DNA of 16,920 nt, taken from contig JANPJS010000170.1 of the NCBI GenBank assembly GCA_031425655.1, positions 1-16,920 of the forward strand. The letters are read 5' to 3'. The stretch's first letter is position 1. Every line of letters starts with the position of its first letter. This document shows, piece after piece, positions 1-16,126 of this stretch. The stretch is from Abditibacteriaceae bacterium (lineage in GTDB: Bacteria; Armatimonadota; Abditibacteriia; Abditibacteriales; Abditibacteriaceae). The notes under the pieces are model-generated. The model made no database searches and was not told where the DNA came from. It saw only the letters and a program-made list of their open reading frames with translations. A program made the position numbers and the translations under genes.

Positions 1-105
1 GTGAGACCAGTGGAACAAGTGATCTCTGGGAGGCTGTCAGTTTTGAAAAGGCCAAGACCGCAGCAAGGGCACCCAGACTTTATCCTCAGCTTACGCTTCA
101 CCACC

Positions 106-205
106 GACATTCTCAACCATACAAGGGCACCCGGAAGAATCCATTACGATTTTCAATCGAGAGTAGATTCTTCCGGGTGACCTCTGGGCAGGACTCAGAA
201 TGACA
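106..205. repeat. REP-like palindrome (…CATTCT…GAAGAATC / GATTCTTC…CTCAGAATGACA class) carrying the CCGGGTGCCCTCTGGGCAGG motif
   Basis: Perfect 14-bp inverted repeat CACCCGGAAGAATC (128-141) / GATTCTTCCGGGTG (166-179). Inner CGATT/AATCG hairpin at 147-159. Degenerate outer arms GACATTCTCA (106-115) and CTCAGAATGACA (194-205). Confidence 0.7.
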
Positions 206-373
206 AAAACGTCGAGGATTTGAACTCACTGCCGAGTTTCAAGACTGATTCTTAGAAGGTTGCCGGTCGCCGAGTGAAGTAAAAAATCGCGGCCCGACGG
301 CGCCTTATCGGTTAAAATGCGAGCGAGACTGCCGCATTGAAAAGGCAGATTGAAAGCAAAAAGGGAACGACAT

Positions 374-1318
374 ATGAAGACTCGAAACATTGTGATTTTG
401 GCCGCCGCTTTATTGATGGCGGCGCCGGCGATAACGACGCTGACCGGCTGCGGCGGCGGCAACGGCGTGTCAATCGGCAATCGAAGCATTAACAACCTGC
501 CGATTGCTTTTGGCAACGGACAAAACGGCCAACTCGACTTGGGCATTGCCAACGGCGCGGTTAACGCCGTTCTGCGCGTCTTCCCGCCACCACCGCCCCT
601 GCTTGGCAAAGCCGGCAAGATTTCGGCTCAGGCTCTCCCGTTCATTCCCGCCGGAACTTACACCGGAACCGGCACGATTAACAGTTCGGGCGCTTTCACC
701 ATCAGCTTCGATTTGGTCGCTCCGGTGCCGGATATTACCATCACCGGCACCGTGCCGACGCTGAGTTCGACCGGCGGTTACACCATTACGGTGGGCGGCC
801 AAAGCGTGAGCGGCACCTTCCCTTCGCTGGGCCAGAACACGCCAACGCCAACGCCGACTTCCACCACCGACCGCATCACGGGAACAATTTCCGGGCAGTC
901 CGGCGCCAACGTGACGGGCGCCACGTTTGATATGCCGCTTAAAAGCAGCACCGTCAGAAATACGCCCAGCCCGCGCATTTTTTCGGCGATTTACGAAGAT
1001 CGCTCCGGCACTCTGTTTCGCAGCATCTCGCTGGAAGTGCTGCCAACTGTAGATTTGGCGGCGGGCCAAAACTTCTCGCTGGCCGCTGGCAACGGCTCAT
1101 TTTCTTATTTTGAGGCGCAGAACAGCAATCCGGGAACAACTGCGAAGAATTGGGATTCGATCAGCGGCACGCTGCACATTGATTCGGTGCAAGGCGACAT
1201 CGTGCGCTTTTCCATCCAAACCGCGCGATTGCAAGCGCGCACCGGCGATCAATCAAGCGGCTCGTTTACCATCAGCGGCAGCGGACAGGCGCGCACTTCG
1301 TTCGGCGGCGCCGGATAA
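374..1318 (+). CDS. Secreted lipoprotein of unknown function, Gly/Ser/Thr-rich, probably two beta-rich domains joined by a TPTPTPT linker
   Basis: ATG at 374 follows AAGGGA. Signal MKTRNIVILAAALLMAAPAITT leads to lipobox LTG-C, then GGG. A terminator hairpin follows the gene. Confidence 0.85.
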   Translation: MKTRNIVILAAALLMAAPAITTLTGCGGGNGVSIGNRSINNLPIAFGNGQNGQLDLGIANGAVNAVLRVFPPPPPLLGKAGKISAQALPFIPAGTYTGTGTINSSGAFTISFDLVAPVPDITITGTVPTLSSTGGYTITVGGQSVSGTFPSLGQNTPTPTPTSTTDRITGTISGQSGANVTGATFDMPLKSSTVRNTPSPRIFSAIYEDRSGTLFRSISLEVLPTVDLAAGQNFSLAAGNGSFSYFEAQNSNPGTTAKNWDSISGTLHIDSVQGDIVRFSIQTARLQARTGDQSSGSFTISGSGQARTSFGGAG

Positions 1319-1336
1319 ATTCACGATGCGTTTTCC

Positions 1337-1377
1337 ACAGCCGCGTTGCTTTCGAGCAGCGCGGCTGTTTTTGTTTT
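1337..1377 (+). terminator. Rho-independent terminator of the lipoprotein gene
   Basis: Stem ACAGCCGCGTTGCT / AGCAGCGCGGCTGT (one G-U), TTCG loop and T-rich tail, starting 19 nt after the TAA stop. Confidence 0.85.
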
Positions 1378-1399
1378 GGTGGCTTAGAATGAGTTTTGA

Positions 1400-1484
1400 G
1401 ATGCGGGGCCGGGTGCCCTCAGGGCGGATCCTCTTCCAAACCAACAAGGCTATTTTGTTTGGAAGAGGGCGTTAGCCCCGCATC
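1400..1484. repeat. REP-like palindrome (GATGCGGGGCTAACGCCCTCTTCCAAAC class) with the left arm interrupted by the 20-nt motif
   Basis: GATGCGGGGC (1400-1409) pairs with 1475-1484, and CCTCTTCCAAAC (1430-1441) pairs with 1457-1468. The 6-nt GCGTTA of the right arm faces 20 nt (1410-1429) in the left arm. Confidence 0.8.
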
Positions 1485-3905
1485 CCCGGATTGAGCCATC
1501 ACCGCTTTTGTCTTGGTGAGCAAAAGCAAAACTGCTGCGACGGCGTAAATGGCGGCGCCAAAAATCAGCATTTGCTGCAAGCCGTAGCTGCGAGCGCCAA
1601 AAGCCGACAAAAACGAGCCGAACACCGACGCCACGCCGTTCAAACCCCAGACCAGAGGCACCAAACCCGCCCGTTCGCGCGCGAAAAGTCGCACGCCGGT
1701 CGGAAACGGAGTGCCCAACGCCACGCCCAAAGGGAAAAGCAATAACGCGACGGTCGCGCAGCGCAGCGGCAGATTCATGCCGAGTAATACGGCGTCCAAC
1801 TGCGACAAAAACGCCGTCAAAACCAGCGTGGCAAGCGCCACGGCTGCGGCACAAAGCGCGCCGTAAAACGCCAAAGCTTTGCCGTCGAATCGCTGCGAAA
1901 TCGCCGCGCCCGCGCCGCCGCCGAGCAAAAGGGAAAACAAAATCACGGTCAGCGCGAGCGTCGGATAACCGAGCGGCAAAACCAATTTTTGGATCAGCGG
2001 GATTTCAATCAGCATGAAACCGACGCCCAAAGCCAAAAAATAGACCGCGAAAAGCCCGTCCGAGCGGCGCAGCGGCGAAGTCAGGTCTTGTTTCAAGCCC
2101 CAGCCAAGAAAAACCAGCGCCACAACCAACAAAGCGCCTAAAGCGAGGCCGAGATTCTTCAAAATCGGCGGCGTTCCGGCGGCTAAATCGAGAACGAAAG
2201 GCCGGTCGTCGGGGCGCGGCGTGATGTCAAGAGGCGGCTTCAGCTTGCCGAACTCCGCCGCGAACGCATCGGGCGTCATCGTGCCGTCGGCGATTTGTGT
2301 ATACGGGCCGTAGGCGGCCTGATCGGGAATCCAAATTGGCTGCAAACCGCGCTGAAAACGCGCGGCTGCGAACATCGCCTCGCACTGCGATTTTGATAGC
2401 GCCGACTTTTGAATCACGATGGCGAATTGATAAGGGCCGGGATTCGCATCGTTGACGATGGCGATATGGCGGCAGGCTTCGCGCGCCGAAATGCCGTGCT
2501 TTTGCATCACTTCGAGCGCCGTCGTGAAAAAGCGCGCCAGCAAAATCGGGCTGTCGAGCACAATCGTAATTTGCCCGTCGTCTTCCAGCGCCTGCCAGTA
2601 ATCTTCAAAAGCATCGGAGGTGTAAATAAACGATTCGAGCAGAGCCATGCCCTGCGCCGCCGTCGCAGTTTTGGTCAGGGCGGAAAAAACCAGACCAAAC
2701 TTTTCGCCTTGCCGCACGCGCTCGCGCACGAAAGCGCGGCCTTCGGCGGTTTGCACATGAACTTCCGGGCGGCGATAAATACCGCCGTTGAAAGCACGAT
2801 ACTTTTCCTCATCCATCAAGCCGACAATTGAAGGATTGATTTCAGCGCCGTGAAATGCTTTGGCGCCGTGACGAAGCGAAAGCAGCGCGTCCAAACCGCC
2901 GCCGGGGCCGATTGATAGCACTTTTCCCGCAGGCTTTTTGCTCGATCCCAGCGGCGCGACCGCAAAGGCCCAATCGCTGAGCGGAAAATAGCGCGCGATT
3001 TGTCCGATGCTGGCGACTTTGCCGTCCCATTTCATCATGTTGGTGGGCACGTTGCCGTTGGTGTAGACCAGCAGCGTATCGGCGGCGTCCAGCTCGCTTT
3101 GCCCCGCCTTTAGCGGTGCTTCGCTCACAACATCGGTGCGCGCAAAAGCATTCCAGCGCGTGTCAAGAATGCGCGCTTCGTGACCGGGCGTGCCCATTTC
3201 GGTGAAAAGCGGCTGCGTGGTGCCTTTATCGGCCAGCGAAGCGCCTTGAGCGTCGGTTTTGGGCGGCAAAGGCGGCACGTCTATGAAGCGCAAAGGAATG
3301 TTGGCGAAGCACACGCCGACCACGAGCGCAGTCCACAACGGCAAGCGCGGCGTGCGCTCGCAGCACCACGCGGCGCAGGCCGCCAAAATGGCCATGAGCA
3401 GGCAGGCGTCCATCGCGCTGAGGTGATTCATGATCGGCACGATGGCCGCCGCCGCCAAAGCCGCGCCCGCTAAATCCCACGCATAAAGACGCCCGCTCCA
3501 CGGCGCGTGGCGCGCGAACGCTTCGGCCAAAAACGCGCCCGCGATGGAAAACGGCACCAGCATCACGATGACCGACAAAAGCGAAACTTCAGGAAAATAC
3601 GCGAAGACGCCGCGCATTAAAACCAGCAGGGCGACGTCCACGGACAACGCAAACGCGATAGCCAAAGCGCCCAACGAGAGCGCGCGTTTGCGCCGCGCCA
3701 AATGCGCCGCGTAGCCGCCGACGCCCAGCCCGCACAGCGCCATGCTGATCACCAAAAACGCGAAGTGATAGCGAAGCACGGTGGCGAAGACGCGCGTCAA
3801 GGCCACTTCGAGGCCCAGCACGGCAGCCGCAATAAGCGCGACCGCCAACAGAAAACTCTGCGGCGGTCGCGTGGAAAGGTCGGGTTGAATTTTAGGAGCG
3901 GACAC
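1419..3905 (-). CDS. Multi-pass membrane protein with a central spermidine-synthase-like class I SAM-dependent transferase domain
   Basis: 828-aa ORF. N-terminal TM block (LEVALTRVF, LYAWDLAGAA); soluble domain with VLSIGPGGGLD, AEINP and EGRAFV; PRPDDRPF; C-terminal TM block (LGVGFMLIEI, GTPFPTG, WGLNGVASVFG). Confidence 0.88.
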   Translation of the reverse strand: MSAPKIQPDLSTRPPQSFLLAVALIAAAVLGLEVALTRVFATVLRYHFAFLVISMALCGLGVGGYAAHLARRKRALSLGALAIAFALSVDVALLVLMRGVFAYFPEVSLLSVIVMLVPFSIAGAFLAEAFARHAPWSGRLYAWDLAGAALAAAAIVPIMNHLSAMDACLLMAILAACAAWCCERTPRLPLWTALVVGVCFANIPLRFIDVPPLPPKTDAQGASLADKGTTQPLFTEMGTPGHEARILDTRWNAFARTDVVSEAPLKAGQSELDAADTLLVYTNGNVPTNMMKWDGKVASIGQIARYFPLSDWAFAVAPLGSSKKPAGKVLSIGPGGGLDALLSLRHGAKAFHGAEINPSIVGLMDEEKYRAFNGGIYRRPEVHVQTAEGRAFVRERVRQGEKFGLVFSALTKTATAAQGMALLESFIYTSDAFEDYWQALEDDGQITIVLDSPILLARFFTTALEVMQKHGISAREACRHIAIVNDANPGPYQFAIVIQKSALSKSQCEAMFAAARFQRGLQPIWIPDQAAYGPYTQIADGTMTPDAFAAEFGKLKPPLDITPRPDDRPFVLDLAAGTPPILKNLGLALGALLVVALVFLGWGLKQDLTSPLRRSDGLFAVYFLALGVGFMLIEIPLIQKLVLPLGYPTLALTVILFSLLLGGGAGAAISQRFDGKALAFYGALCAAAVALATLVLTAFLSQLDAVLLGMNLPLRCATVALLLFPLGVALGTPFPTGVRLFARERAGLVPLVWGLNGVASVFGSFLSAFGARSYGLQQMLIFGAAIYAVAAVLLLLTKTKAVMAQSGDAGLTPSSKQNSLVGLEEDPP

Positions 3906-3911
3906 GGCTTG

Positions 3912-3920
3912 ATTTTAGCA
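3912..3920 (-). promoter_or_regulatory. Extended -10 promoter (TGcTAAAAT), probably leaderless
   Basis: The minus strand reads TGCTAAAAT-caagcc-GTG (start at 3905), with no Shine-Dalgarno. Confidence 0.6.
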
Positions 3921-3927
3921 AAACTCG

Positions 3928-4066
3928 GTGAGGAATTAATGTCTCACGCAAAGACGCCAAGGCGCCAAGATTTTAAAGACAATCAGAATACCTTTCTCTC
4001 CAATCCGGGTGCTTCAAATTTTCTCTTGGCGCCTTGGCGTCTTTGCGTGAGACATTAATTCCTCAC
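3928..4066. repeat. Long palindromic element with perfect 43-bp arms and a 9-nt periodic core (CGCAAAGA/CGCCAAGG)
   Basis: GTGAGGAATTAATGTCTCACGCAAAGACGCCAAGGCGCCAAGA (3928-3970) is the exact reverse complement of 4024-4066. The loop is 53 nt. Confidence 0.92.
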
Positions 4067-5235
4067 GGCATCGGCATTTTGCCGCCTTTTATGGCTTCTT
4101 CCATTTGCTCGAACTGCTTGTTGATGTCGGGAATCGGTTTGCGTTTGTAGCCGGTCGGCGCCTCGAAAATCGTGGCGGGAAGTTCGTCCAGACTGCGGCG
4201 CACGAGATTCATTTCGGCGCGCATTTCTCCCCATTGCGCTTTGAATTCGTCGGGCGGCGTGACCGTCATGAACATCGCCAGCGGCGTGGCGACGTGCTTG
4301 AATTCGGGAGAATCGGCTTCGGCGTCGGGGCGCGGCACTATCGTATACATCGAGCGCAGAATTTCTTCGGGCATCATTTCCAGCATCACGCGCGGCGATT
4401 CGTTCATCCACATCGAAGTGCTGCCTTTGCGCTCTCGGCCCACTACTTTCAGAGCCGCTTCGCGCAACTGCACTATGGCTTCGTCGCCGGGCAAGTTGGC
4501 GGCAAGCCACCATTCCATCGCCACGCGCATCCAACGCCCGCCGCCCTGCATCGGATTCGCGGTGTTGATCAGCATCGTCAAACGGTAGCCGCGCCCTTCC
4601 AAGCCGTTAATCGTGCGCGTGTTGTCAATTTCACGAAGATAGGTTTTGAAAACGCGATTGGTAAACGGCGAAAGCGCGGCGCGCACTTCGGCGCCCAAGC
4701 GCGTTCGCTGTTCGCGCGTCAGTGCCGGCGGCTCGTCCTTCGAGAGTTTTGGAGCCAGTTTGCGCCACGGGTCGAAGCGCGTTTTTTCAAGAAGCTCTTT
4801 GATGGATTCGCCGATATAAGTCTTGTCTATCGAAGAAAACATGATGATTTGGTCGTCATCGAAGCGCTGAACAATCGAGACGTTGCCCTCGAAGGGGTTT
4901 GCCGTCATCGTGTCGCCGATTTGGGCAAAAACCAAGCGCGAAAGTGCCGACGGCGCGGCAAACGTCGTCATAGCCGGCTTGGCCATGCCGCCCATATCAC
5001 CCATTCCGCCCATGTTTCCCATGCCGCCCATGCCTTCGGGGTTGAGCCTATATTTCATCATCACGCGGTGGCGCGCCGGCGTGATATTGTTGAACACCTT
5101 GAACTTCAAAACCGGCTGCTTCGATTTAGTCAGGCGCACCTGACCGCTGTGTTCCCACGTTAAATCGGCGTGCGAAGTCGCGGCGGTGACGGCCAAAATT
5201 CCCAGTGCGGCGGTTAAAAAACGCTGTATTTTCAT
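4063..5235 (-). CDS. Secreted protein of unknown function, DUF4412-like
   Basis: ATG at 5235 with an AAGGA SD and upstream TATAAT (5269-5274). Signal peptide MKIQRFLTAALGILAVTAATSHA. The 'TRTINGLEGRGY' and C-terminal 'LPATIFEAPTGYKRK' patterns resemble DUF4412 proteins. The ORF-track extension to 5499 overlaps the GNAT gene and is unlikely to be real. Confidence 0.8.
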   Translation of the reverse strand: MKIQRFLTAALGILAVTAATSHADLTWEHSGQVRLTKSKQPVLKFKVFNNITPARHRVMMKYRLNPEGMGGMGNMGGMGDMGGMAKPAMTTFAAPSALSRLVFAQIGDTMTANPFEGNVSIVQRFDDDQIIMFSSIDKTYIGESIKELLEKTRFDPWRKLAPKLSKDEPPALTREQRTRLGAEVRAALSPFTNRVFKTYLREIDNTRTINGLEGRGYRLTMLINTANPMQGGGRWMRVAMEWWLAANLPGDEAIVQLREAALKVVGRERKGSTSMWMNESPRVMLEMMPEEILRSMYTIVPRPDAEADSPEFKHVATPLAMFMTVTPPDEFKAQWGEMRAEMNLVRRSLDELPATIFEAPTGYKRKPIPDINKQFEQMEEAIKGGKMPMP

Positions 5236-5286
5236 CGGATTTCCTTTTTTCAGCGGCAGTCGCAAAAGATTATACACGCGGGCACT

Positions 5287-5315
5287 TTGACGCGACGGGA
5301 ATCGCCCTTCATACT
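5287..5315 (+). promoter_or_regulatory. Sigma70-type promoter of the GNAT gene, probably leaderless
   Basis: TTGACG (5287-5292), 17-nt spacer, CATACT (5310-5315), 7 nt, then ATG at 5323. Confidence 0.6.
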
Positions 5316-5322
5316 GTGTGCC

Positions 5323-5886
5323 ATGCTCGCTTCTCAGGCACCTTCGCCTTCTTTGTCCGACGCGCAGGACGTTGAAGACACGGTTCTCTCCTTCGATTTG
5401 CCTCGTTCCATTGTGCGCGTGCGCGCGTTGCGCGAAAGCGATAATGTTCCGCTGGAATGGCACGGCGGCGAAGATTTGCGTTCGTTTTATGAGCGTCAAT
5501 TATGGGCGCACCAAAGCGGCGAGGCCTTCGTGCTGATCGCCGATTTCAACGGTTTTCCCATTGGCCAAGCCGCGATTTACTGGACGGGCAAGCCCACGCA
5601 TCCGCATTGGCCGGACTTGCAATCGCTGCGCGTGCATCCGGTTTTTCAAGGACAAGGCATCGGCACGCGTTTGCTCGACGCCGCTTCGATAATAGTGAAA
5701 GCACGCGGCCTGCCGCACCTGAGTTTGTCGGTCAGCGTCGTCAATCACGGCGCGCATCGGCTTTACGAACGCTGCGGATTTCGCGTGTCCAGCCAGCCTT
5801 ATGAAGATTCGTGGGAATATCTCAACGCGGCGGGCGAACCCGTGCGCCTGACCGAAACCGTGCTCGATTTACTAAAGGAATTGTAA
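5323..5886 (+). CDS. GNAT family N-acetyltransferase
   Basis: Acetyl-CoA motif A (LRVHPVFQGQGIGTRLL) and motif B (NHGAHRLYERCGF). The start was chosen from promoter geometry. Confidence 0.9.
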   Translation: MLASQAPSPSLSDAQDVEDTVLSFDLPRSIVRVRALRESDNVPLEWHGGEDLRSFYERQLWAHQSGEAFVLIADFNGFPIGQAAIYWTGKPTHPHWPDLQSLRVHPVFQGQGIGTRLLDAASIIVKARGLPHLSLSVSVVNHGAHRLYERCGFRVSSQPYEDSWEYLNAAGEPVRLTETVLDLLKEL

Positions 5887-5888
5887 AA

Positions 5889-6002
5889 CGTTGAATGGAA
5901 CACGGAGCTTCGCTACGCGGATTTCATACGCGGATTCTCCACGGATTGATCTGTGCCTTCCGTGTCGTTTCCGTGAAGCGAAGCTCCGTGTTCCATTCAA
6001 CG
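5889..6002. repeat. Palindromic element (GGAACACGGAGCTTCGCT / CACGGA class), copy 1
   Basis: Perfect 26-bp arms CGTTGAATGGAACACGGAGCTTCGCT (5889-5914) / 5977-6002. Internal (A/G)CGGATT and TCCGTG units. 22 nt are identical to 16821-16842. Confidence 0.92.
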
Positions 6003-6020
6003 CTTGACGAAAGGATTCTC

Positions 6021-7289
6021 ATGCCTACTGCAAAGGAAATCGCCCGTCTTGAAAGCCTTTCCACCTATCAAACGGTCAACCACCAATTCGACCGCGCCGC
6101 CGATCTTCTCGACCTGCCGGCTGCCGAGCGCACGATTCTTAAAAGTCCTTTCCGCGAATTGAAAGTGGAAATTCCTCTCAAAATGGACAGCGGCGATTGG
6201 CGCGTTTTCAACGGCTATCGCATTCAGCACGACAATTCGCGCGGGCCGTGCAAAGGCGGACTGCGCTACCATCCTTCGGTGGACGACGACGAAGTGCGCG
6301 CCCTCGCTTCGCTGATGACGTGGAAAACCGCGCTTGTGGACGTGCCTTTTGGCGGCGCCAAAGGCGGCATCGCCTGCGAGCCGCAAAAGATGAGCAACGA
6401 CGAGCGCCAGCGTTTGACGCGCGCTTTCGTGCGCGCCATTGACGACATCATCGGCCCGCACACCGATATTCCGGCGCCCGACGTGAACACCTCGGCGCAA
6501 ACGATGGCGTGGGTCATGGATGAATACTCGGCGCGTCACGGCTACACGCCCGCCGTCGTGACCGGCAAGCCGGTGCATTTAGGCGGAAGTTTCGGACGCG
6601 AAGACGCCACCGGTCGCGGCGTGACCATCATCACCAAAGCGGCGGCGCGGGCTTTTGGCTTGAATTTGCGCGAGGCGCGCGTGGTGTTGCAGGGCTTCGG
6701 CAACGTGGGCAGCCACGCCGCGCGATTGCTGCACGAATCCGGCGCCAAAATCGTCGCCGTTGGGGACGCGCACGGCGCGGTTTTCAACGCCGACGGCCTC
6801 GATATTACCGCATTGGCGGCGCACAGCGCCATCAACGGCAAAGTCGGCGGATTTCCCGGCACGACGCCGCTTTCGCCGCAGCAGCTTTTTGAAACCGAGT
6901 GCGAAATTCTCATTCCCGCCGCGCTGGGCGGCGTAATTGATGCCGACCTGGCCGCAAAAGTAAAAACCAAGCTTGTGATCGAAGGCGCCAACGCGCCGGT
7001 CACGGCGGGCGGCGAGGCGATTTTGCGCGAACGCGGCATCATTTCGGTGCCGGACATTTTAGCCAACGCCGGCGGTGTGGTCGTCTCGTATTTCGAGTGG
7101 GTGCAAAACCTCACGGAGTTCCGCTGGAAAGAAGAGCGCGTGCAAGTCGAACTCGAAGAAACCATGCTGCGCGCCTTCGGCGAAGTCGCGCACGTCGCCG
7201 ATAAACGCGACACCGATTTGCGAACTGCCGCCTTTGTGCTTTCCATCGGCCACGTCGCCGCCGCCTCGCGCCTGCGGTGGATGAATTGA
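6021..7289 (+). CDS. gdhA: Glutamate dehydrogenase (Glu/Leu/Phe/Val dehydrogenase family)
   Basis: Motifs GPCKGGLRYHP, PFGGAKGG, DIPAPDVNT, QGFGNVG, EGANAP and PDILANAGGVVVSYFEWVQN. ATG at 6021 follows AAAGGA. The ORF-track extension from 5895 just translates the repeat. Confidence 0.95.
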   Translation: MPTAKEIARLESLSTYQTVNHQFDRAADLLDLPAAERTILKSPFRELKVEIPLKMDSGDWRVFNGYRIQHDNSRGPCKGGLRYHPSVDDDEVRALASLMTWKTALVDVPFGGAKGGIACEPQKMSNDERQRLTRAFVRAIDDIIGPHTDIPAPDVNTSAQTMAWVMDEYSARHGYTPAVVTGKPVHLGGSFGREDATGRGVTIITKAAARAFGLNLREARVVLQGFGNVGSHAARLLHESGAKIVAVGDAHGAVFNADGLDITALAAHSAINGKVGGFPGTTPLSPQQLFETECEILIPAALGGVIDADLAAKVKTKLVIEGANAPVTAGGEAILRERGIISVPDILANAGGVVVSYFEWVQNLTEFRWKEERVQVELEETMLRAFGEVAHVADKRDTDLRTAAFVLSIGHVAAASRLRWMN

Positions 7290-9157
7290 AGCGAAACAAG
7301 AAGAAAATCCAGCCTCCGCGCGGCGTTTTTCCTTCTTTCCTCAAGAAATTGCTGTTTCCGGCCTTACTTGTTGCCATCGTGACGCTGGTTTTTCACGAAG
7401 TCTGGCAGCATCCGTTTGTGCCTTACGACGATCAGATTCTGGTCTACGAAAACCCTCATTACTTGCAGAAAAACGGGCCGGACATCGCCTATTTTTGGGA
7501 TCATCCGCACGAGAAACTTTATATGCCCCTGACTTATTCAGTCTGGGGAATTTTAGCCGGAGTTTCTCACTTGGAAACGCCGATTGAGTTGGGAAACGAC
7601 AAGCGAATTCCGTTTTCGGCGCAGCCTTTTCATCTCCTAAACTTGTTTCTTCACCTCATAAATACCGTGTTGGTCTTCGGCATCGTGCGGCGTTTTATAG
7701 CCGCCGACTGGCCTGCGTTCGTCGGCGCCTTAATTTTCGGCATTCATCCTTTGCAAGTCGAATCCGTCGCTTGGATTTCAGAACTCAAAGGCGTGATGAG
7801 CGGCTTTTTCGCCCTTCTCTGCCTGTATTCCTATACGCATCATGCCGACGCCGAGCGTTGGCCTTCGCGGAGACGACAGTTCCTCTTTTTGCTGCTCTCG
7901 TTGTTGTTTTTTGGCCTCGCCTTATTGTGCAAACCATCGGCGGCGGCGCTGCCCTTTGTGTTATCGGCGTTGGAATTGGGCTTGTTCCGGCGCGAACGCC
8001 TCCGCGTCGTGCTTTCCCTCGTGCCGTTTTTCTTAATCGCCGGTTTTTGGGCCATCCTTACGCGCTGGGCACAGCCGTGGCAGCCGGAAATTCCACTTGT
8101 GCCGCTCTGGACGCGCCCGTTTATCGCCGCCGACGCGATTGCTTTTTACATGGGCCATTTTGCGTGGCCTTTGCAGCTTGGCATCAATTACGGACGCCGG
8201 CCCGATTTGGTATTACAGCACTGGTGGGCGTTCGTCGCGTGGATTCCCATTGCCGGCGTCGTCTGGCTTTGTCATCGAAGTCGAAAGAGCGAGCCGAAGA
8301 CGGCCTTGTGGTTATTTATCGCGCCGCTGATTCCGGTGCTGGGATTTCTGCCCTTCGTTTTTCAAACCCATTCCACGGTCGCAGATCGCTACGTTTATTT
8401 ATCTTTGTTAGGCGCCGCCTTAGCGACCGCCTGGCTGTTGACGCGTTTTCCAACGCGAATTTTAACGATTGGCGTTGTCGCATGGCTGATGTGGCTCGGT
8501 TTTCTCAGCGGACGGCAAATTTCGACTTGGAACTCGCCTAAAAATTTATTTACGCAGGCTCTTACCGTAAATCCCAATGATGCCCAATCGCACGCTGGTT
8601 TAGCCGAAGTTTTGGTTCGAGACGGCCAGTTGACATCAGCGATTTACCATTTGGAACAAGCCGTGCTTTTGAAGCCCGACGATTATACGATGTATGCCAA
8701 CTTGGGCGATGCCTACTTGCAAGACGGGCAAATGACTGAAGCGCTCGCCACTTTTCGCAAAGCGATTCACTTGAAACCGGATTCCGCGAAATCGCACTAC
8801 AACCTGGCTAACGTGCTGGCTCGAATGGGGCGATTGCCTGAATCTTCGCAACATTACACGATTTGCCTGCGCCTCAATCCCCAATTAGTCGAAGCTTATA
8901 ATAATGCGGCGATTACTTTAGCGCGGCAGGGAAAGTTGAGCGAAGCCATCGCGCTGTGGTATCGAGGTTTGAATCTGTGCCCAAATAATCCCGAAGCGCA
9001 TTTCAATTTGGCCAACACCCTGATGAAAGCGGCACGATCCCAAGAAGCGATTCCTCATTACCAGGAAGTCTTGCGCTTAGCTCCGAATTTCCCGCCCGCG
9101 CGTCCGGCTCTCGAAAAAGCAATGAATCAGGCCGCGAGCAAAGCTTCACTGCGTTAA
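7286..9157 (+). CDS. TMTC-like (GT-C fold) membrane glycosyltransferase with C-terminal TPR repeats
   Basis: About 10 TM segments with PYDD, YMPLT, HPLQVESVAWISE, LLCKPSA and ADRYVYL, followed by about 6 TPRs (e.g. YANLGDAY, HYNLANVL, YNNAAITL, HFNLANTL). Start is either TTG 7286 (TTGA overlap with the gdhA stop) or GTG 7277. Confidence 0.85.
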   Translation: MKRNKKKIQPPRGVFPSFLKKLLFPALLVAIVTLVFHEVWQHPFVPYDDQILVYENPHYLQKNGPDIAYFWDHPHEKLYMPLTYSVWGILAGVSHLETPIELGNDKRIPFSAQPFHLLNLFLHLINTVLVFGIVRRFIAADWPAFVGALIFGIHPLQVESVAWISELKGVMSGFFALLCLYSYTHHADAERWPSRRRQFLFLLLSLLFFGLALLCKPSAAALPFVLSALELGLFRRERLRVVLSLVPFFLIAGFWAILTRWAQPWQPEIPLVPLWTRPFIAADAIAFYMGHFAWPLQLGINYGRRPDLVLQHWWAFVAWIPIAGVVWLCHRSRKSEPKTALWLFIAPLIPVLGFLPFVFQTHSTVADRYVYLSLLGAALATAWLLTRFPTRILTIGVVAWLMWLGFLSGRQISTWNSPKNLFTQALTVNPNDAQSHAGLAEVLVRDGQLTSAIYHLEQAVLLKPDDYTMYANLGDAYLQDGQMTEALATFRKAIHLKPDSAKSHYNLANVLARMGRLPESSQHYTICLRLNPQLVEAYNNAAITLARQGKLSEAIALWYRGLNLCPNNPEAHFNLANTLMKAARSQEAIPHYQEVLRLAPNFPPARPALEKAMNQAASKASLR

Positions 9158-9160
9158 ACG

Positions 9161-9203
9161 AAGAAAAGCGGCCCGACGGATTATCCGCCAAGCCGCTTTT
9201 CTT
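9161..9203. terminator. Bidirectional terminator between the convergent TPR and hsp20 genes
   Basis: AAGAAAAGCGGC (9161-9172) / GCCGCTTTTCTT (9192-9203), with an imperfect inner stem and T-rich tails on both strands. Confidence 0.8.
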
Positions 9204-9218
9204 GCCTGAGCCTTACGA

Positions 9219-9710
9219 CTACGCTTTTTCGCCGGGTTGCGTGCCGGCGCCGGCTTCGATCATTTTCGGCTGGCTTTTGCCAACTGTTAACTCGATGCGG
9301 CGTGGCTGTGCCGAAGCCGCTTTCGGGACGATGATCTCAAGAACGCCGTTGTTATAATGCGCTTCGATTTTCTCAGTGTCCGCCGTTTGCGGCAAGGTCA
9401 CGGTGCGGCTGAAGCTGCCATATTGCTGCTCGATCCACACATAATTGTCCTTCTCAACCTTTTCTTCAAAGCGCCGCTGCGCCGAAACCGTAATTGTGTG
9501 ATCTTCGACATGGACATTGACATCATCAGGATTCACACCCGGCAGCGAGGCGCGCAGTTTCAACGCATCCGCCGTTTCGATGACATCCATGGGCAATAGC
9601 CACGTTTGCCGCTCCCCGCTCAAACCATTTTCCGACCGCGCAAAAAGGCGGTTCATATCCTCCTGCAACGATTGCAGTTCCCGGAAGGGATTCCAACGCA
9701 CAACAGACAT
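9219..9710 (-). CDS. Small heat-shock protein (Hsp20/alpha-crystallin family)
   Basis: Motifs RWNPFREL, PMDVIET, LPGV, YGSFSRTVTLP and AHYNNGVLEIIVPK. ATG at 9710 is preceded by a GAGGTG SD. Confidence 0.95.
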   Translation of the reverse strand: MSVVRWNPFRELQSLQEDMNRLFARSENGLSGERQTWLLPMDVIETADALKLRASLPGVNPDDVNVHVEDHTITVSAQRRFEEKVEKDNYVWIEQQYGSFSRTVTLPQTADTEKIEAHYNNGVLEIIVPKAASAQPRRIELTVGKSQPKMIEAGAGTQPGEKA

Positions 9711-9814
9711 GATATTCACCTCTTCAAAGATTTGTTTTGAAACGATATTTCATCGCCTCAATCAAAACGAAAAACGCAAATCTAATTTCGTGGTTCCAAA
9801 AAATTTTAATGTTT

Positions 9815-9835
9815 CTTGAGCGCAATACTATCAAG
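9815..9835. promoter_or_regulatory. HAIR-like (HspR) operator upstream of hsp20
   Basis: CTTGAGC-N7-TATCAAG versus consensus CTTGAGT-N7-ACTCAAG (11/14 matches, correct spacing), about 105 nt upstream of a heat-shock gene. Confidence 0.55.
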
Positions 9836-10646
9836 GCAAAAGCCGCCGCTGACGCACCGCTTCATAAAGCAAAACTCCGGCGGCGACGGTGACATTCAAC
9901 GATGAGGCGCCGTTTGGAGCCATCGGTAGCGCGACAAAGTCGCTGGCTGCTTCGCGCGCCGATTCGCTTAATCCTTCCGTTTCGTTGCCGACCAAAATCA
10001 TCAGCGGACGCCTTTGCAAATCAGCATCATAAGCCAGATTAGCGGCTTTAGCGGAGGTGGCCACGGTGTAAATATCGGCCAAAGCAAGACGTTTTAGCAG
10101 CGACGAGAAATCTTCGGAGATGCCAATCGGCAAGCGCAAAATTGAGCCGGTCGTCGAGCGCACAGCGGCGCGCTGCCACGGCTCGGCGCTATCGGATGAG
10201 AACAGAATCGCCGTGCATCCGGCAGCTTCGGCGGTGCGAATCAGAACGCCGACGTTGCGCGGGTCTTGAATGCGTTCGCACGCTAAAATCAACGCGTTTT
10301 GTTGCGGCGTCCACTCGTGCAGATTCAAAACGGTTTGCTCGACAATCGCCAACGCGGTGACGGCGGTTTCATAGCCTGTGCCAACTAATTTCGGCATCAA
10401 ACCGCCGCCCGCGACATAAAGCGGAATTTCGCGCGCGGCGCACTCATCACGAAAAACGGGCGCCGCGTCGGGTGTGGCGTAAAGCGCATGAACCGGCGAC
10501 GGCGAAGCCAGCGCCTGTCGCACCAGATTTTCGCCTTCGACCAAGTATTTGCCGCTTGCGGCGCGTCCGGCGGGTTTCAACAGCTCGGCGGCGGCTTTAT
10601 AAGCTTCGTCTTTGATGCCGTTTAAAAGTTGCATGGTGGTTTTCAA
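9831..10646 (-). CDS. TrmH/SpoU family RNA 2'-O-methyltransferase
   Basis: SPOUT motifs IQDPRNVGVLIRTAEAAG, LVGNETEGLS and SSLNVTVAAGVLLYE, plus N-terminal YLVEG. Start is TTG 10646 or ATG 10634. Confidence 0.93.
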   Translation of the reverse strand: MKTTMQLLNGIKDEAYKAAAELLKPAGRAASGKYLVEGENLVRQALASPSPVHALYATPDAAPVFRDECAAREIPLYVAGGGLMPKLVGTGYETAVTALAIVEQTVLNLHEWTPQQNALILACERIQDPRNVGVLIRTAEAAGCTAILFSSDSAEPWQRAAVRSTTGSILRLPIGISEDFSSLLKRLALADIYTVATSAKAANLAYDADLQRRPLMILVGNETEGLSESAREAASDFVALPMAPNGASSLNVTVAAGVLLYEAVRQRRLLP

Positions 10647-10655
10647 AAGGCGATT

Positions 10656-10758
10656 TTAAACACAAAGACGCAAAGACACAAAGATTTTCAAGGTTCTTCA
10701 AGAAAAAATGCCTTGAAGTCCCTTGTTTTTATTTGTGTCTTTGCGTCTTTGTGTTTAA
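10656..10758. repeat. Palindromic element with perfect 27-bp arms and a 9-nt periodic core, related to 3928-4066
   Basis: TTAAACACAAAGACGCAAAGACACAAA (10656-10682) is the exact reverse complement of 10732-10758. Confidence 0.9.
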
Positions 10759-10760
10759 TG

Positions 10761-10797
10761 ACAAAAGCCCCGACTCCTGCGAGTCGGGGCTTTTTGT
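10761..10797. terminator. Rho-independent terminator downstream of cysN, potentially bidirectional
   Basis: AAAAGCCCCGACTC-ctgc-GAGTCGGGGCTTTTT, 12 nt beyond the cysN stop. Confidence 0.88.
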
Positions 10798-10808
10798 TGG
10801 CGAGCATT

Positions 10809-12092
<1,284 letters not shown>

Positions 12093-12106
12093 AACGATGA
12101 GGAAAA

Positions 12107-12222
12107 GGATGAGGGATGAAGGATGAGGGATGAACGAAGCGCCTGCGGCGCGCAATCCGAGGCGCGAAGCGCCCATTCATCTCCTGCCCAGAGGGCGCCC
12201 GGCCTTCATCCCTCATCCCTCA
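12107..12222. repeat. Inverted heptamer-repeat element (GGATGAG/GGATGAA) between cysD and cysN, interrupted by the 20-nt motif
   Basis: Four heptamers at 12107-12134 and inverted TTCATCT/TTCATCC/CTCATCC/CTCA units at 12176-12222. CCTGCCCAGAGGGCGCCCGG lies at 12183-12202. A GGCGC-GAA-GCGCC hairpin lies at 12161-12173. Confidence 0.85.
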
Positions 12223-13116
12223 AAAGTATCCGGCTTTTTTGCGGTCTTCCATCGCGGCTTCGGAGCGCTTGTCGTCGGCGCGTGTGCCGCGCTCCGTTGT
12301 GCGCGAGGCTGCGACTTCGGAAATGATGTCTTCGAGCGAATTGGCCGGCGATTCGACGGCGCCGGTGCAAGTCGCGTCGCCGATAGTGCGAAAACGAACC
12401 CAGCGATCCGTCAGCTTTTCGTGGGCGCGTGGCACAAGAAATTCGGTTTGTGCGAGCAGCATTCCGTCGCGCTCGAACACCGAACGCTCGTGCGTGAAAT
12501 ACAAACTCGGCAGGTGAATGTTTTCCTGCATGATGTATTGCCACACGTCCATTTCCGTCCAGTTGGAAATCGGAAACACGCGAAAATGCTCGCCGACGGC
12601 TTTGCGGCCATTGAACAAATTCCACAGTTCGGGGCGCTGATTTTTTGGATCCCACTGCGAAAATTCGTCGCGGTGCGAGAAAAAGCGCTCTTTGGCGCGG
12701 GCTTTTTCCTCGTCGCGCCGCGCGCCGCCGATGGCGCAGTCGAATTTTAGTTCTTCGAGAGCATCTACAAGCGTCACGGTTTGCAGCGCGTTGCGGCTGG
12801 CGTTCGGGCCTTTTTCTTCAGCTACGCGGCCTTGATTGATCGAATCCTGCACCGAGCGCACAATCAGCTTGGCATCGAGGTGAGTAATCCATTCATCGCG
12901 GTAGGAAATCGTTTCGTGGAAGTTGTGCCCGGTGTCAATGTGCATCAACGGAAACGGGATTTTCGCCGGCCAAAAGGCCTTGCGCGCCAGATGCGAGACC
13001 AAGATCGAATCTTTGCCGCCCGAAAACAGCAAAACGGGCCGCTCAAATTGCGCGGCGACCTCGCGCAGGACGAAAATGCTTTCGCTTTCAAGTTCTTTTA
13101 AATGAGAGAGTTTCAT
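12220..13116 (-). CDS. cysD: Sulfate adenylyltransferase subunit 2
   Basis: Motifs LESESIFVLREV, LLFSGGKDS, GGARRDEEKARAKERFFS, WDPKNQRPELW, RFRTIGD and MEDRKKAGYF. Confidence 0.97.
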   Translation of the reverse strand: MKLSHLKELESESIFVLREVAAQFERPVLLFSGGKDSILVSHLARKAFWPAKIPFPLMHIDTGHNFHETISYRDEWITHLDAKLIVRSVQDSINQGRVAEEKGPNASRNALQTVTLVDALEELKFDCAIGGARRDEEKARAKERFFSHRDEFSQWDPKNQRPELWNLFNGRKAVGEHFRVFPISNWTEMDVWQYIMQENIHLPSLYFTHERSVFERDGMLLAQTEFLVPRAHEKLTDRWVRFRTIGDATCTGAVESPANSLEDIISEVAASRTTERGTRADDKRSEAAMEDRKKAGYF

Positions 13117-13237
13117 GCAACAAAAGGCCGCACAAGCCGTTATTTGGGCCTGCGGCGAGGTTATTCCACCTGCGAGGTAGAATTAAGGAACTCCATAGTT
13201 TTTACAATAAGGCCGGGCTGTGAACAAGACTGGGCAC

Positions 13238-13385
13238 ACCACCCCATCCCCGGCCCTTCCCCTTGAAACGGCGAAGGGGAAGGGAGTTCTGGCCCTTCTG
13301 CTTTGGGAAAACCATCGCTTTTCTCAAAGCAAAATCGGTCGTCCTCCCTTCCCCTTCACCGTTCGGGCGCCCTCTGGGCAGGGGG
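13238..13385. repeat. REP-like nested palindrome (CCCCGGCCCTTCCCC…GGGGAAGGGAG class) whose right arm ends in the 20-nt motif
   Basis: CCCTTCCCCTT/AAGGGGAAGGG hairpin at 13254-13284. Arms of 19/20 identity at 13267-13286 / 13344-13363. Inner 12/13 stem at 13299-13331. CGGGCGCCCTCTGGGCAGG lies at 13364-13382. Confidence 0.85.
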
Positions 13386-13393
13386 TTCGCCGT

Positions 13394-13399
13394 TATACT
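13394..13399 (+). promoter_or_regulatory. -10 box TATACT of the ABC transporter genes, probably leaderless
   Basis: TATACT, 7 nt, then in-frame GTG 13407, which begins a lipoprotein signal peptide. No SD is present. Confidence 0.55.
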
Positions 13400-13406
13400 C
13401 TGGCGC

Positions 13407-15098
13407 GTGCAACGCTTCAAATTGCCTCGAATTTTGCTTTGTGTCGGCCTGTTTTGGCTCGCTGGCTGTGCCCGTCAAGGTCACGAAGCCGGCGTTCTGC
13501 ACGTCGCGGTCGAAGCTGATCCTCCGACTCTCGATCCCGCCAAATCTTACGACTCATCTTCGATTCCCTTCGTGCGCGTGCTTTATCGCGGTTTGGTGGA
13601 TTACGACGACAATGCCGGCATCGTGGATGCCGTGGCGCACAGCCACATGGTCTCGTCGGACGGCAAAACTTACTGGTTTAAATTGCGCCGTGATGCACGG
13701 TTTCACCACGACGAGAAAACCGGCACCGCGCCGGGCCGTCGCGTGACCTCCAACGATTTTCGCTTCGCTTTAGAGCGCGTTCTCGACCCTGAAACCGCGT
13801 CCGACGGCCTCGCCCTGCCCGGCTATTTGGCGATTCGCGGCGCGAAAGAATTTTCCGAAGCGTGCGGAAAATTCGCGGAGCAATTGGCGAATCAGAAGCT
13901 GCTTCCCGCGCAACAGGCCGATTTGCGACGACAGCGTGCGGCGCTTCACGTTGAAGGCATCGAAGTGCGCGGCGATGACGAAATCATCTTTCATCTTGAG
14001 GACGCCGACGCCACTTTTCTCAACTATCTGACGCTGCCGTTCGCTTACGCCGTTCCGCCCGAAAGTGTGGCGCGTTGGGGCAAAAGTTTCAGCGAGCATC
14101 CCAATGGCTGCGGGCCGTTTATCTTGGAGGAATGGGTGCATGACGGCTGGCTGCGCTTGAAAAAAAATCCGCATTATTACGACCGGAATCTGCCGCGCTG
14201 TGAGCGCGTGAACGTGCAAATGGGCAACAAGACCACGCTGCAAATCATGCGCTTCGAGCGCGGCGAAATTGACCTTTTGGACATGACTTCGGCCTTCCCG
14301 CCCGATTTCCTGCGCTTGCGCGACGAACCTCAATGGAAACCTTACGTTCAACACGGGCCGATGATGGATATTCGCTACGTTGCGCTTAATTGCGAATTGC
14401 CGCCGTTTAACGATGTGCGTGTGCGCCGCGCCGTCAATTATGCCGTCAATCGGCAGCGCATTACCTCGTTTCTCGCGGGGCGCGCGACGGTCGCGCGCGG
14501 CGCTTTGCCGCCGGGAATGCCGAGCTACAATCCGAAACTGTTTCAATATGCTCACGACCCGGCCAAAGCGCGCGAATTGCTCAAACAGGCCGGTTACAAA
14601 GATAAGCCGATGACGTTTTGGTATTCGACGCGCGAAGGCTGGTATGAAAAAGCGGCGCAGAGCATCAAGCAGGATTTGGCCGCAGTCGGCATGACGATCA
14701 ATCTCAAAGCCGTGAGTTACGGCGATTTGAAGGCGCAGGCTGGCAAGCGCAAAAACGTGCAATTGGCCATGATGGGCTGGTATCAAGACTTCCCTGACCC
14801 GTCGAATTTCTTAGACGTGCTGTTCAACACTAAAGCGATTACCGAAGTCGCCAGTCAGAACCGCGCTTTTTACTCGAATCGTCGCAACGATGCGCTGCTC
14901 GACAAAGCGCGCGTCGAAATCAACCGCGAAAAGCGCCTGCAAATGTATCGTGATGCCGAAAAAATCATCGTAGACGACGCGCCGTGGCTTTTTTTGCACC
15001 ACACCGAGCGCTATTTAGTCTCGCAGCCGTGGATTAAGGGCTACAAAATTCATCCGATGTGGTCGGAGCGTTACGAATTCGTCGAGGTGAAACGGTGA
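13407..15098 (+). CDS. ABC transporter substrate-binding lipoprotein, family 5 (OppA/DppA-like)
   Basis: Signal ending in lipobox LAG-C. Motifs DPPTLDPA, SDGKTYWFKLR, PNGCGPF, PFNDVRVRRAVNYAVNR and GWYQDFPDP. The ORF-track start at 13263 lies inside the repeat. Confidence 0.93.
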   Translation: MQRFKLPRILLCVGLFWLAGCARQGHEAGVLHVAVEADPPTLDPAKSYDSSSIPFVRVLYRGLVDYDDNAGIVDAVAHSHMVSSDGKTYWFKLRRDARFHHDEKTGTAPGRRVTSNDFRFALERVLDPETASDGLALPGYLAIRGAKEFSEACGKFAEQLANQKLLPAQQADLRRQRAALHVEGIEVRGDDEIIFHLEDADATFLNYLTLPFAYAVPPESVARWGKSFSEHPNGCGPFILEEWVHDGWLRLKKNPHYYDRNLPRCERVNVQMGNKTTLQIMRFERGEIDLLDMTSAFPPDFLRLRDEPQWKPYVQHGPMMDIRYVALNCELPPFNDVRVRRAVNYAVNRQRITSFLAGRATVARGALPPGMPSYNPKLFQYAHDPAKARELLKQAGYKDKPMTFWYSTREGWYEKAAQSIKQDLAAVGMTINLKAVSYGDLKAQAGKRKNVQLAMMGWYQDFPDPSNFLDVLFNTKAITEVASQNRAFYSNRRNDALLDKARVEINREKRLQMYRDAEKIIVDDAPWLFLHHTERYLVSQPWIKGYKIHPMWSERYEFVEVKR

Positions 15099-16126
15099 AA
15101 GGGTTGGCTAAACGCGCCGCGTGGGGCGTCGTCACTTTGTGGCTGGTGAGCCTGATAACTTTCGGCTTGCTCTTCGTGATTCCCCTTGTGCCCACGCTTT
15201 TTGCGCCCACAAAAACGCAAACCAGTTGGCCGGCGCGCGTGTCACTGGCTTTCCAGCGCAGCACGCAACTGATGTGGACGGAGCCGCCGCGCGAAGCCAC
15301 CGATGCGATGGCGATGACCATCGCCGGCGCGCATCATGACGAAAAAACCTTAGCCAACATCAAGCGCGACCGAGGACTCGACCAGCCTTTGCCGCGTCAA
15401 TACGCGCTTTTCGTGCGCGATGCGCTGACCAATAATTTGACTTCGTATCGCAACGGCGACATGGTGATGGCGGCCATCTGGCGGCGCTTCGGCAACACTT
15501 TTTTACTGGCCGCGACGGCCCTCAGCCTTTATCTCATCGTGGCGATTCCGCTCGGTCTGGCCACAGCGCGGCGTGCCGGCAGCGGCTTCGACCGCTCCAT
15601 GCTGCTGCTGAGCTTAATCGCGGTCAGCATTCCCACATTTTGGTTGGGACGATTGCTGCAATATTATCTGGGCTACAAAATGGGCGCCTTCAGCGTCGGA
15701 GGCGATGCGAATCTGGCGAATCTGCCGCTCCCGGCCCTGACGCTTGCGGTCGGCGGCGCGGCTTACTATTCGCGTCTGCTGCACGCCAATTTGCGCGGCG
15801 TGCTTTCGCAGGATTACATCCGCGCGGCGCGGGCACGCGGCATCGGCGAAGGCAAAGTGATGTGGCGTCACGCCCTGAAAAACGCACTAATCCCTCTCAT
15901 CGCCGTGCTGGGCATGGACTTCGCCTCGCTGCTCAGCGGCCTGATCTTTACGGAAAAAATCTTCGCGTGGCCCGGCATCGGCAGTCTCGCCATTGACTCA
16001 GTGCAGAATCAGGACACGCCGATGATAATGGGCACAGTTCTCTTCTCCGCACTTATGGTTGTTTTGGCCAACATTGCCGTTGACATCGCTTATCGCATCA
16101 TTGACCCGCGCGTGCGGGTTGACTGA
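15095..16126 (+). CDS. ABC transporter permease (OppB/DppB-like)
   Basis: GTGA overlap with the binding-protein stop. Motifs GLDQPLPRQY, SIPTFWLG, EAA loop DYIRAARARG…HALKNAL, FAWPGIG and IDPRVR. Confidence 0.93.
   Translation: MKGLAKRAAWGVVTLWLVSLITFGLLFVIPLVPTLFAPTKTQTSWPARVSLAFQRSTQLMWTEPPREATDAMAMTIAGAHHDEKTLANIKRDRGLDQPLPRQYALFVRDALTNNLTSYRNGDMVMAAIWRRFGNTFLLAATALSLYLIVAIPLGLATARRAGSGFDRSMLLLSLIAVSIPTFWLGRLLQYYLGYKMGAFSVGGDANLANLPLPALTLAVGGAAYYSRLLHANLRGVLSQDYIRAARARGIGEGKVMWRHALKNALIPLIAVLGMDFASLLSGLIFTEKIFAWPGIGSLAIDSVQNQDTPMIMGTVLFSALMVVLANIAVDIAYRIIDPRVRVD

Follow-up and report, generated by a model that had tools for sequence, protein, structure and literature searches.

A 20-nucleotide hairpin element that takes the place of five host bases in Abditibacteriaceae and Chloroflexota genomes

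The stretch of DNA that is analysed here, a contig of 16,920 nucleotides (nt) from an Abditibacteriaceae bacterium (contig C170, JANPJS010000170.1, positions 1 to 16,920; hereafter "the window"), raises the question of how one and the same motif of about 20 nt comes to lie inside several palindromic repeats that are unrelated to each other. The preliminary description of the window proposed that the motif is a very small unit, written into such repeats in place of host sequence. We have followed the motif through the source genome (G000, 5.98 Mb, 97% complete), its relatives and more distant carriers, and we have found that it is almost certainly an independently mobile unit: a small hairpin element that is exchanged for five host bases, the last of which, in the source genome, is nearly always a G.

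In G000, the unit consists of CGGGYGCCCTYTGGGCAGG followed by a variable last base, which we refer to as X. Across the genome, its 16-nt core, CGGGYGCCCTYTGGGC, has 261 exact copies, and 318 copies if one mismatch is allowed, as compared with 0.117 exact occurrences expected for the four core words together under an order-6 Markov model of G000. The information content of the G000 copies lies between 1.0 and 2.0 bits at element positions 1-19 and does not exceed 0.33 bits outside them: the conserved block starts at the first C, extends over 19 positions, and is bordered by the background level on either side. The extra C that had been placed at the front of the motif belongs to the host, with position 0 holding 0.19 bits. 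Free variation (C or T) is limited to element positions 5 and 11, while position 20 is X; over the 318 copies, the element is 19-24 nt long with sharp information edges, and its leader occurs in the variants CGGGY, CGGGGC, CCGGGT and CCGGGA. None of the 96 combinations of frame and consensus variant, taken over all six frames, contains a stop codon. An adaptor or an assembly artefact is ruled out by the covariation of the stem, by orthologous empty sites and by the many independent assemblies in which the element is found, and a constant part of a larger repeat is ruled out by the 42 clusters of sites in which it occurs. The window gave no match to a known RNA family when scanned against Rfam; literature searches by motif strings and by description, which did not extend to supplements, did not find the family, and the supplements of PMC3733652 list more repeat families, possibly including a relative.

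The exchange of sequence is seen by comparison with empty alleles, i.e. with host sites that lack the element, which were searched for in G000 by placing the 12+12-nt flanks of each copy, with at most two mismatches, around a gap. A gap of 5 nt fits 223 of the 318 copies, as compared with 4, 20, 62 and 19 copies for gaps of 3, 4, 6 and 7 nt. The last of the five lost bases is G in 222 of the 223 copies and, when related sites are grouped, in 41 of the 42 clusters, as against a G content of 34% at the remaining four positions. The sequence NNNNG is replaced by 20 nt in 201 copies (a net gain of 15 nt) and by the 19-nt form in 22 copies (a net gain of 14 nt); no target duplication occurs at any swap, and X stands where the G was. 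The earlier suggestion of replacement, as opposed to insertion with duplication, is thus upheld, five bases being lost and none duplicated. The 95 copies that have no empty allele are mostly located in rarer hosts, at contig ends, or beside a second copy.

The junction base follows a pattern of its own: X is A in 143, T in 43, G in 35 and C in 2 of the 223 copies. The base that follows the target G is poor in A (3% vs 24%), and X is T almost exclusively before G; X depends on the next host base with p = 1.5e-4, a value whose significance is overstated because the contexts are related and not independent. At one host site, X differs between genomes. From this difference, and from the dependence on the next host base, we infer that X is formed locally at the junction; copying of X from the partner arm and slippage on the next base do not fit the contexts that were examined by eye.

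The same exchange is found in orthologous genes of related genomes. The tyrS gene of G000 contains two in-frame insertions that are absent from three congeners, each with a clean gain of 15 nt, and the lost fifth base is G in 3/3 congeners at the second site and in 2/3 at the first. G000 has the element in a tRNA-Arg(TCG) gene whose counterpart in G001 is empty, again with a clean gain of 15 nt, and the G is located where the pairing of the tRNA predicts it. In dxs, the site is occupied in G000 and G002 and vacant in four relatives, with the same gain. Among 100 contexts at loci of other genomes, 41 accommodate a 5-nt gap, and the fifth base is G in 35 of these 41.

In the window, four near-full copies are present where they had been reported, with their limits corrected to 174-193, 1410-1428, 12182-12201 and 13364-13383, and no two of them have the same host family; a fifth copy, of which the left half is present, is located next to a fragment of an insertion sequence (IS):

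174..193, plus strand: element copy of 20 nt with one stem mismatch, replacing GCAAG of a REP-like host.
1410..1428, plus strand: element copy in the 19-nt form, with a TCA loop, replacing TAACG.
12182..12201, minus strand: consensus element copy of 20 nt, replacing GGAGG in a GGGATGA-type heptamer run between cysD/cysN-like genes.
13364..13383, plus strand: consensus element copy of 20 nt, at the end of an inverted-repeat host with arms at 13267-13311 and 13319-13363.
124..133, minus strand: left half of the fifth element copy, which an IS of the IS110 family has split at the CT core (124-125).

Three of the four near-full copies have empty alleles, i.e. their hosts also occur without the motif, in agreement with the idea of a very small independent unit: the host site of the copy at 174 has 83 empty and 20 consensus-filled alleles in the genome, the TAACG allele of the site at 1410 occurs five times, and the GGAGG allele of the site at 12182 occurs 14 times. 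The partner arm of the copy at 1410 (1457-1484) retains the empty 5-mer at 1470-1474, and the loss at this site is of 5 nt, not of the 6 nt of partner arm that the copy had been described as facing. The copy at 13364 has no empty allele in the genome; its left flank and its right flank derive from two different insertion sites of one host, and on the evidence of these flanks it is likely a recombinant of two neighbouring copies. All four copies are spanned with 0 differences by contigs of the probable source run, an agreement that is not independent of the assembly. Among the partial copies that had been proposed, the one at 124-134 is a real half element, split by the IS110 and not decayed; those at 19-33 and 66-74 are parts of the IS110, and that at 4005-4012 is a bare 8-nt match, where no match to the element exists even at five mismatches.

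The TCA loop of the copy at 1410 (window 1419-1421) is also the TGA stop of an 828-amino-acid open reading frame on the minus strand (1419-3905), which has no Pfam match and whose final residues are encoded by the host repeat. Further empty host palindromes are located at 3928-3970/4024-4066, 5883-6008, 10656-10758 and 16821-16920 of the window, one of them with perfect arms of 43 nt.

Regarding the choice of site, an inverted-repeat arm is present at the element-free site of 182 out of 285 copies, compared with 18% of random intergenic positions (531/2922) and 3.5% of coding positions (569/16465), which bears out the enrichment in inverted repeats that had been anticipated. Palindromes are preferred but not required, because orthologous empty sites occur in tyrS, dxs and tRNA-Arg. 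Confinement to hairpin or cruciform DNA, as first supposed, does not agree with the copies that are located directly in genes and in a tRNA, nor with the target G, which has no fixed position in the stems of the hosts; the copies are also unbiased with respect to gene direction (59 vs 63) and GC skew (30 vs 29).

Direct seats are found in tyrS, in dxs, in Calx-beta and PA14 genes, in IS1, ISAs1 and IS256 transposases, and in one tRNA, so the earlier remark that copies are absent from ordinary coding sequence is valid for the window and fails genome-wide. With a wider pattern, 22 of 348 matches in G000 fall in predicted genes; judged by eye, seven of these are direct in-frame copies, several lie within host repeats in genes, and about five are due to chance. 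One in-gene copy frameshifts an ISAs1 transposase, and ISAs1 is hit at the identical codon in three genomes of two phyla. Survival of the element in genes is explained by the net gain of 15 nt and by the lack of stops in six frames; essential enzymes have in this way received five-residue insertions, two in TyrRS and one in DXS. Filled hosts also amplify clonally: all the listed copies of G009 and G018 that were viewed have one common host site. Since filled hosts multiply in this manner, the number of copies overstates the number of events, and the 42 site clusters are the safer count.

Several other seats deserve mention. Host repeats that contain the element occur apparently in frame in predicted genes, like intragenic REPs, at C13:7314, C51:751, C109:8204, C114:5741 and 6608, C128:17693, C150:9387, C202:1428 and C267:5873 of G000. 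The tRNA-Arg(TCG) gene of G000, which the element breaks at the junction of the D-stem and the anticodon stem, is found with a tRNA array that has seven genes in G000 (C61:85-845) and 11 in G001 (C668; loci L177 and L178). At C62:11540 and C101:1518 of G000, elements are located in sequence that resembles, by eye, IS605-type ends or their RNA.

The element itself is built from a C-GGG leader, a stem of 4 bp, a pyrimidine loop, a short tail and the variable X. The outer stem pair is G-C in 232, A-T in 26 and of other types in 7 copies of G000, and G-C in 133, A-T in 31 and of other types in 4 of the loci from other genomes; a second compensated stem pair occurs in a form with a long loop. Of the two folds that had been proposed, the triloop is thus the conserved one, as indicated by the covariation of its stem. 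Sister forms with 6-nt leaders and A-T stems are present in G000 in 18 and 17 copies, some of them with a 6-nt loop, and a 24-nt sister form occupies the same CCGCG host site as the main form, with the identical loss of five bases. Rare interior variants recur in unrelated hosts: a 5-nt loop three times (in three hosts), a 6-nt loop three times, and a CCT loop seven times (in four contexts). Since the rare variants recur in three or four hosts with no relation to each other, ordinary copies appear to serve as donors; truncated copies, in turn, show recombination between element copies. In a sub-lineage that is tailed by AG and A or T (L312, L316-L318, L271, L292 and L308 in G063; L093-L099 in G196), the replaced 5-mers mostly start with G and end with C, and they resemble the element's own positions 4-8.

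The half copy at 124-133 leads to a second mobile element, whose parts in the window are the following:

1..123, minus strand: left non-coding end of a multi-copy IS110-family element, with the predicted bridge-RNA region; the remainder has collapsed out of the assembly.
66..74, minus strand: predicted left target guide, a 9-nt stretch that contains the CT core and matches the micro-element's left half.
24..30, minus strand: predicted right target guide of 7 nt, complementary to the core and the right half of the micro-element.

The guides have been assigned according to the model of PMC11208160, i.e. a 9-nt left guide that includes the CT core and a right guide of at least 4 nt. Window 1-135 recurs at eight other places in G000, seven of which are contig ends; the right ends of this IS110 encode a fragment of Transposase_20 (PF02371), its middle being unassembled, and the C-terminal fragment is 81% identical over 113 amino acids to an intact DEDD (PF01548)/Transposase_20 protein of G005. 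In G000, the IS110 ends abut halves of the micro-element in 9/9 left and 10/10 right cases, with the CT of the loop at both junctions, and the same insertion is found in 10/10 full copies of G016, in both copies of G018 and in one of G003; guides and target are identical in these four genomes. The IS110 inserts specifically into the CT core of the micro-element, and the match of this target to its guide RNA is predicted from the sequence. In G005, both guides differ, and the insertion is located in a host repeat that matches those guides; the homologues of G611 and G065 are likewise located in host repeats and not in the micro-element. As the guides change with the target in G005, the lineage appears to have been retargeted between host and micro-element, in a direction that is inferred. 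A TTGAC box is located at the right end of the IS110. Its left end is present in 4/27 genomes of the family, and close homologues are present in 6/41 carriers. Two further loci concern the same lineage: in G017 (C3:10889-11844; L113, L361), a micro-element with an A-T stem is located inside a broken gene of this IS110, and in G000 (C64:20259-20294), a 36-nt remnant of the left end is joined to a host repeat via a short sequence common to both, which points to a deletion of the IS.

The 19-mer, at one mismatch or fewer, is found in 14/26 Abditibacteriaceae genomes (three congeners have 156, 52 and 66 copies) and in 1/34 other genomes of the phylum, while the wider pattern is found in 23/26 genomes of the family and with tens of copies in several genomes from other Armatimonadota families. 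An exact scan of the species collection with the 19-mer returned at least 87 loci, some of the single hits being chance; among the matches listed, most belong to Abditibacteriaceae and to Chloroflexota (Thermomicrobiales, Herpetosiphonaceae and others), and five carrier genomes among the matches contain 43-89 exact 18-mers each. The element is multi-copy in 3/201 genomes sampled across the class of the Chloroflexota carriers; in one Chloroflexota family, the wider pattern has 36-123 copies in 11/12 genomes, two of which (G609 and G610) are unpublished. The 19-mer also occurs in five viral contigs, in one of them in frame in a gene that was named portal-like by eye.

An enzyme encoded elsewhere presumably acts on the element in trans, and candidate families were compared between carriers and non-carriers, the latter being genomes with 0-1 pattern matches (for Chloroflexia, of the strict 18-mer only); most of the genomes are incomplete, and one non-carrier in the Y1_Tnp and RVT_1 comparisons, G101, is unpublished. 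As possible movers, Y1_Tnp (26/30 carriers vs 23/30 non-carriers), RVT_1 (25/30 vs 20/29), PDDEXK_3, i.e. GxxExxY (23/36 vs 18/32), Topoisom_I (24/36 vs 20/32) and DEDD_Tnp_IS110 (20/36 vs 13/32) have all been rejected, and the search for co-occurring mover genes that had been recommended has returned reverse transcriptase (RT), Y1-HUH, IS110, TopIB and GxxExxY genes that do not track the element. The RVT_1 profile has no match in G000, G001, G002, G065, G266 and G196, although insertions specific to G000 exist, and the single conserved RT of the family has no tblastn hit in G000. A master locus beside an enzyme was not found among the 95 copies without an empty allele, in genomes of low copy number or in phage contigs, and the overlap of proteins across phyla, between G000 and G063, returned no candidate; this overlap, which was read by eye, covered 3379/4406 proteins of G000 and 1.94/5.2 Mb (37%) of G063.

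Two of these families show features that are worth recording. In most Abditibacteriaceae, the conserved RT, of about 500 amino acids, is located behind a partner gene (L210, L208), and in G000 (C156:61-2059) the partner gene is followed by a repeat, with no RT hit. The GxxExxY protein of G000 (C45:32813) is 63% identical to that of L315 across two phyla, which is high for a gene that is not a housekeeping gene.

The best explanation, to which we give about an even chance of being right, is that a non-autonomous hairpin is swapped for five bases ending in G, being copied and patched in by a strand-transfer enzyme that acts in trans; that the chemistry is the patching of single-stranded DNA is a proposal that we hold at slightly under even. 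The putative enzyme would recognise the strand in its folded, single-stranded state, in the way that REP hairpins are bound by HUH enzymes, and existing genomic copies would serve as donors of the patch; the target would be opened just 3' of the G and five bases upstream, the patch would be joined at both ends of one strand, X would arise at the 3' junction without a fixed template, and replication would fix the resulting 15-nt loop. The filled host repeats would then be multiplied by the spread of the hosts themselves. DNA, as opposed to a transcript, is indicated as the target because insertions have no bias to gene direction or GC skew, and cleavage of a single strand by a hairpin-bound enzyme, with strand transfer at sites of 1-2 nt, has a precedent in the portions of PMC8266576 that were available.

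Several observations weigh against this explanation. Family profiling, inspection of loci and protein overlap gave no candidate enzyme; Y1_Tnp was not found in 4/6 Chloroflexota metagenome-assembled genomes that are rich in the element, and none of nine dense element clusters is located at one of the six Y1 genes. The known HUH strand transfer, as far as it is described in the same portions of PMC8266576, proceeds without a 5-nt deletion, and TnpA-REP cuts C|T or C|A. The target rule itself has exceptions: the orthologues of dxs have the target G in at most 2/4 cases; copies tailed by AGA or AGT, most of which are from Chloroflexota, have C as the fifth base in 13/19 cases, with net gains of 13-16 nt; and in G063, which has both kinds, only 5/13 five-base empty alleles end in G. 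With respect to the fold, the isolated 11-nt hairpin is no more stable than shuffled sequences (z about 0), and a sister form has A before the stem, which weakens the pyrimidine at this position as a guide for the target G.

Among the alternatives, writing from an RNA template is unlikely: a short minus-sense transcript with a fixed 3' end would be copied by target-primed reverse transcription, the last base being added without a template and five bases being lost through a second nick. This would suit the exact C at the 5' end and the ragged other end (AGG, AG, GG, AGC, AGT or AGA, with 0-2 extra bases), the bias of X to A, and a minus-strand U-A or U-G pair that, judged from sequence, would lengthen the stem for both alleles of position 5, an extra pair that is lost in the sister forms. 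It is opposed by the six genomes without an RVT_1 match and the similar frequencies of RVT_1 in carriers and non-carriers, by the failure of the conserved RT of the family to give a tblastn hit in G000, and by the loci viewed, none of which is a master locus with conserved flanks. Hijacking of lesion repair, which we regard as quite unlikely, would start from a deaminated or abasic cytosine opposite the target G in transient single-stranded DNA, the gap being filled from a donor hairpin and X being placed opposite the lesion. A single step would then account for the constancy of the G as well as for what replaces it (A>T>G>>C), and would accommodate a preference that extends to palindromes, IS genes and the tRNA array and has no fixed stem register; the part of PMC4167244 that was available describes the A-rule and how it depends on context, but gives an insertion of dTMP and dGMP in E. 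coli below 1%, against 19% and 16% here. Nor are the exact donor boundary, without a dedicated protein, and the lineage whose target ends in C explained by such repair.

That there is no dedicated mover, a few ancient insertions having been spread by gene conversion and microhomology between repeats and by the horizontal transfer of repeats that were already filled, is very improbable. The clonal amplification of filled hosts in G009 and G018 is what such passive spread would produce, and the copy at 13364 and the truncated copies testify to recombination between copies; 42 site clusters with unrelated flanks that obey one exact rule are not, single-copy genes hit in one species only contradict it, and the ISAs1 codon hit alike in two phyla is a further argument against it. 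Least probable of all, and scarcely to be expected, is that the IS110 bridge recombinase, with guides matching the hairpin, is itself the mover and seeds its own landing sites. Its guides do cover 14/16 of the most conserved positions, and products of single-strand and half-match type are reported for IS621 in the available part of bioRxiv 10.64898/2026.08.31.748434; yet the IS is too patchy (4/27 family genomes and 6/41 carriers) for an element that is present in 23/26 genomes of the family, the homologues of G005, G611 and G065 sit in host repeats, the A-T-stem and long-loop forms mismatch the guides, and IS110 chemistry retains a 2-nt core and loses no bases.

The SDR1-8 families of Nostocaceae, reportedly described by Elhai et al. 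in 2008, are said to be about 21-27 nt long, to have compensatory stems in some families, and to be seated in heptamer runs and mini-transposons. The element, like these, is a very short dispersed unit in many copies, with sharp ends, filled and empty sites, and a compensated stem; it may work like the SDR elements, with which it has been compared by description, as given in the portions of PMC5861425, PMC4390886 and PMC3116915 that were available. These portions describe SDR elements as dispersed mobile units of about 20 nt that insert precisely and whose mover is unknown, and report that they were not found outside Nostocaceae among HIP1-rich cyanobacteria. In contrast, the present element is found in Armatimonadota and Chloroflexota (the search was not aimed at cyanobacteria), with an identical 19-mer in the two phyla. 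The features that are set against the SDR descriptions are the fixed loss of five bases ending at G, the variable junction base, and the dedicated IS110.

With the GTAG/CGTC REPs and REPINs of TnpA-REP (RAYT), as outlined in the accessible parts of PMC3733652, PMC8266576 and PMC3116915, the element shares a conserved short leader that stands 5' of a small hairpin, abundance in intergenic regions, copies that occasionally lie in frame within genes, and targeting by an IS110. It differs from them in its leader, which is C-GGG and not GTAG/CGTC, in being single and not in doublets, in flanking no Y1 gene, in a junction that is 3' of G with a loss of 5 nt and not at C|T, and in being itself a parasite of REP-like repeats. 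Features of MITEs (miniature transposable elements with inverted repeats) are also missing, as there is no target-site duplication, five bases being lost, and the ends are not complementary; by the features tested, the element is neither a GTAG/CGTC REP nor a MITE. SMR-A of Haloquadratum is similar in having no transposase and no target duplication and in its preference for palindromes of other mobile elements, and is different in its length of about 110 bp and its terminal inverted repeats, with no replacement rule in the portion of PMC3119063 that was available. The IS of window 1-123, for its part, resembles IS621 and the IS110-group bridge recombinases (PMC11208160, available in part) in its DEDD and Transposase_20 domains, in the CT core at both junctions, in the guides at its left end and in its repeated target; it differs from IS621 in being aimed at a mobile unit of 20 nt that is itself nested in REP-like hosts, while its relatives (81%/113 amino acids) target the hosts.

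For these genomes, the outcome is a nest of three levels, an IS110 in a hairpin in a REP-like repeat, which provides a natural example of bridge-RNA retargeting. How 20-nt elements move is a question that has been open since the SDR elements, and the element adds an unusually exact signature of the reaction: five bases lost, 20 gained, a cut at G and one base left free. Together with the pattern of carriers (23/26 genomes of one family, 11/12 of a family from another phylum, and 3/201 across a class), this signature makes the mover findable by whole-genome profiling and open to tests in vitro. We tentatively propose, at a level of belief that falls short of even, that an undescribed class of enzymes, common to distant phyla, writes a 20-nt hairpin cassette with single-base specificity, swapping five bases in frame, and that it is perhaps the mover of SDR-type elements in general, with the IS110 having been retargeted onto an abundant cargo; such a natural writer of short patches, if true, would be a new editing chemistry.

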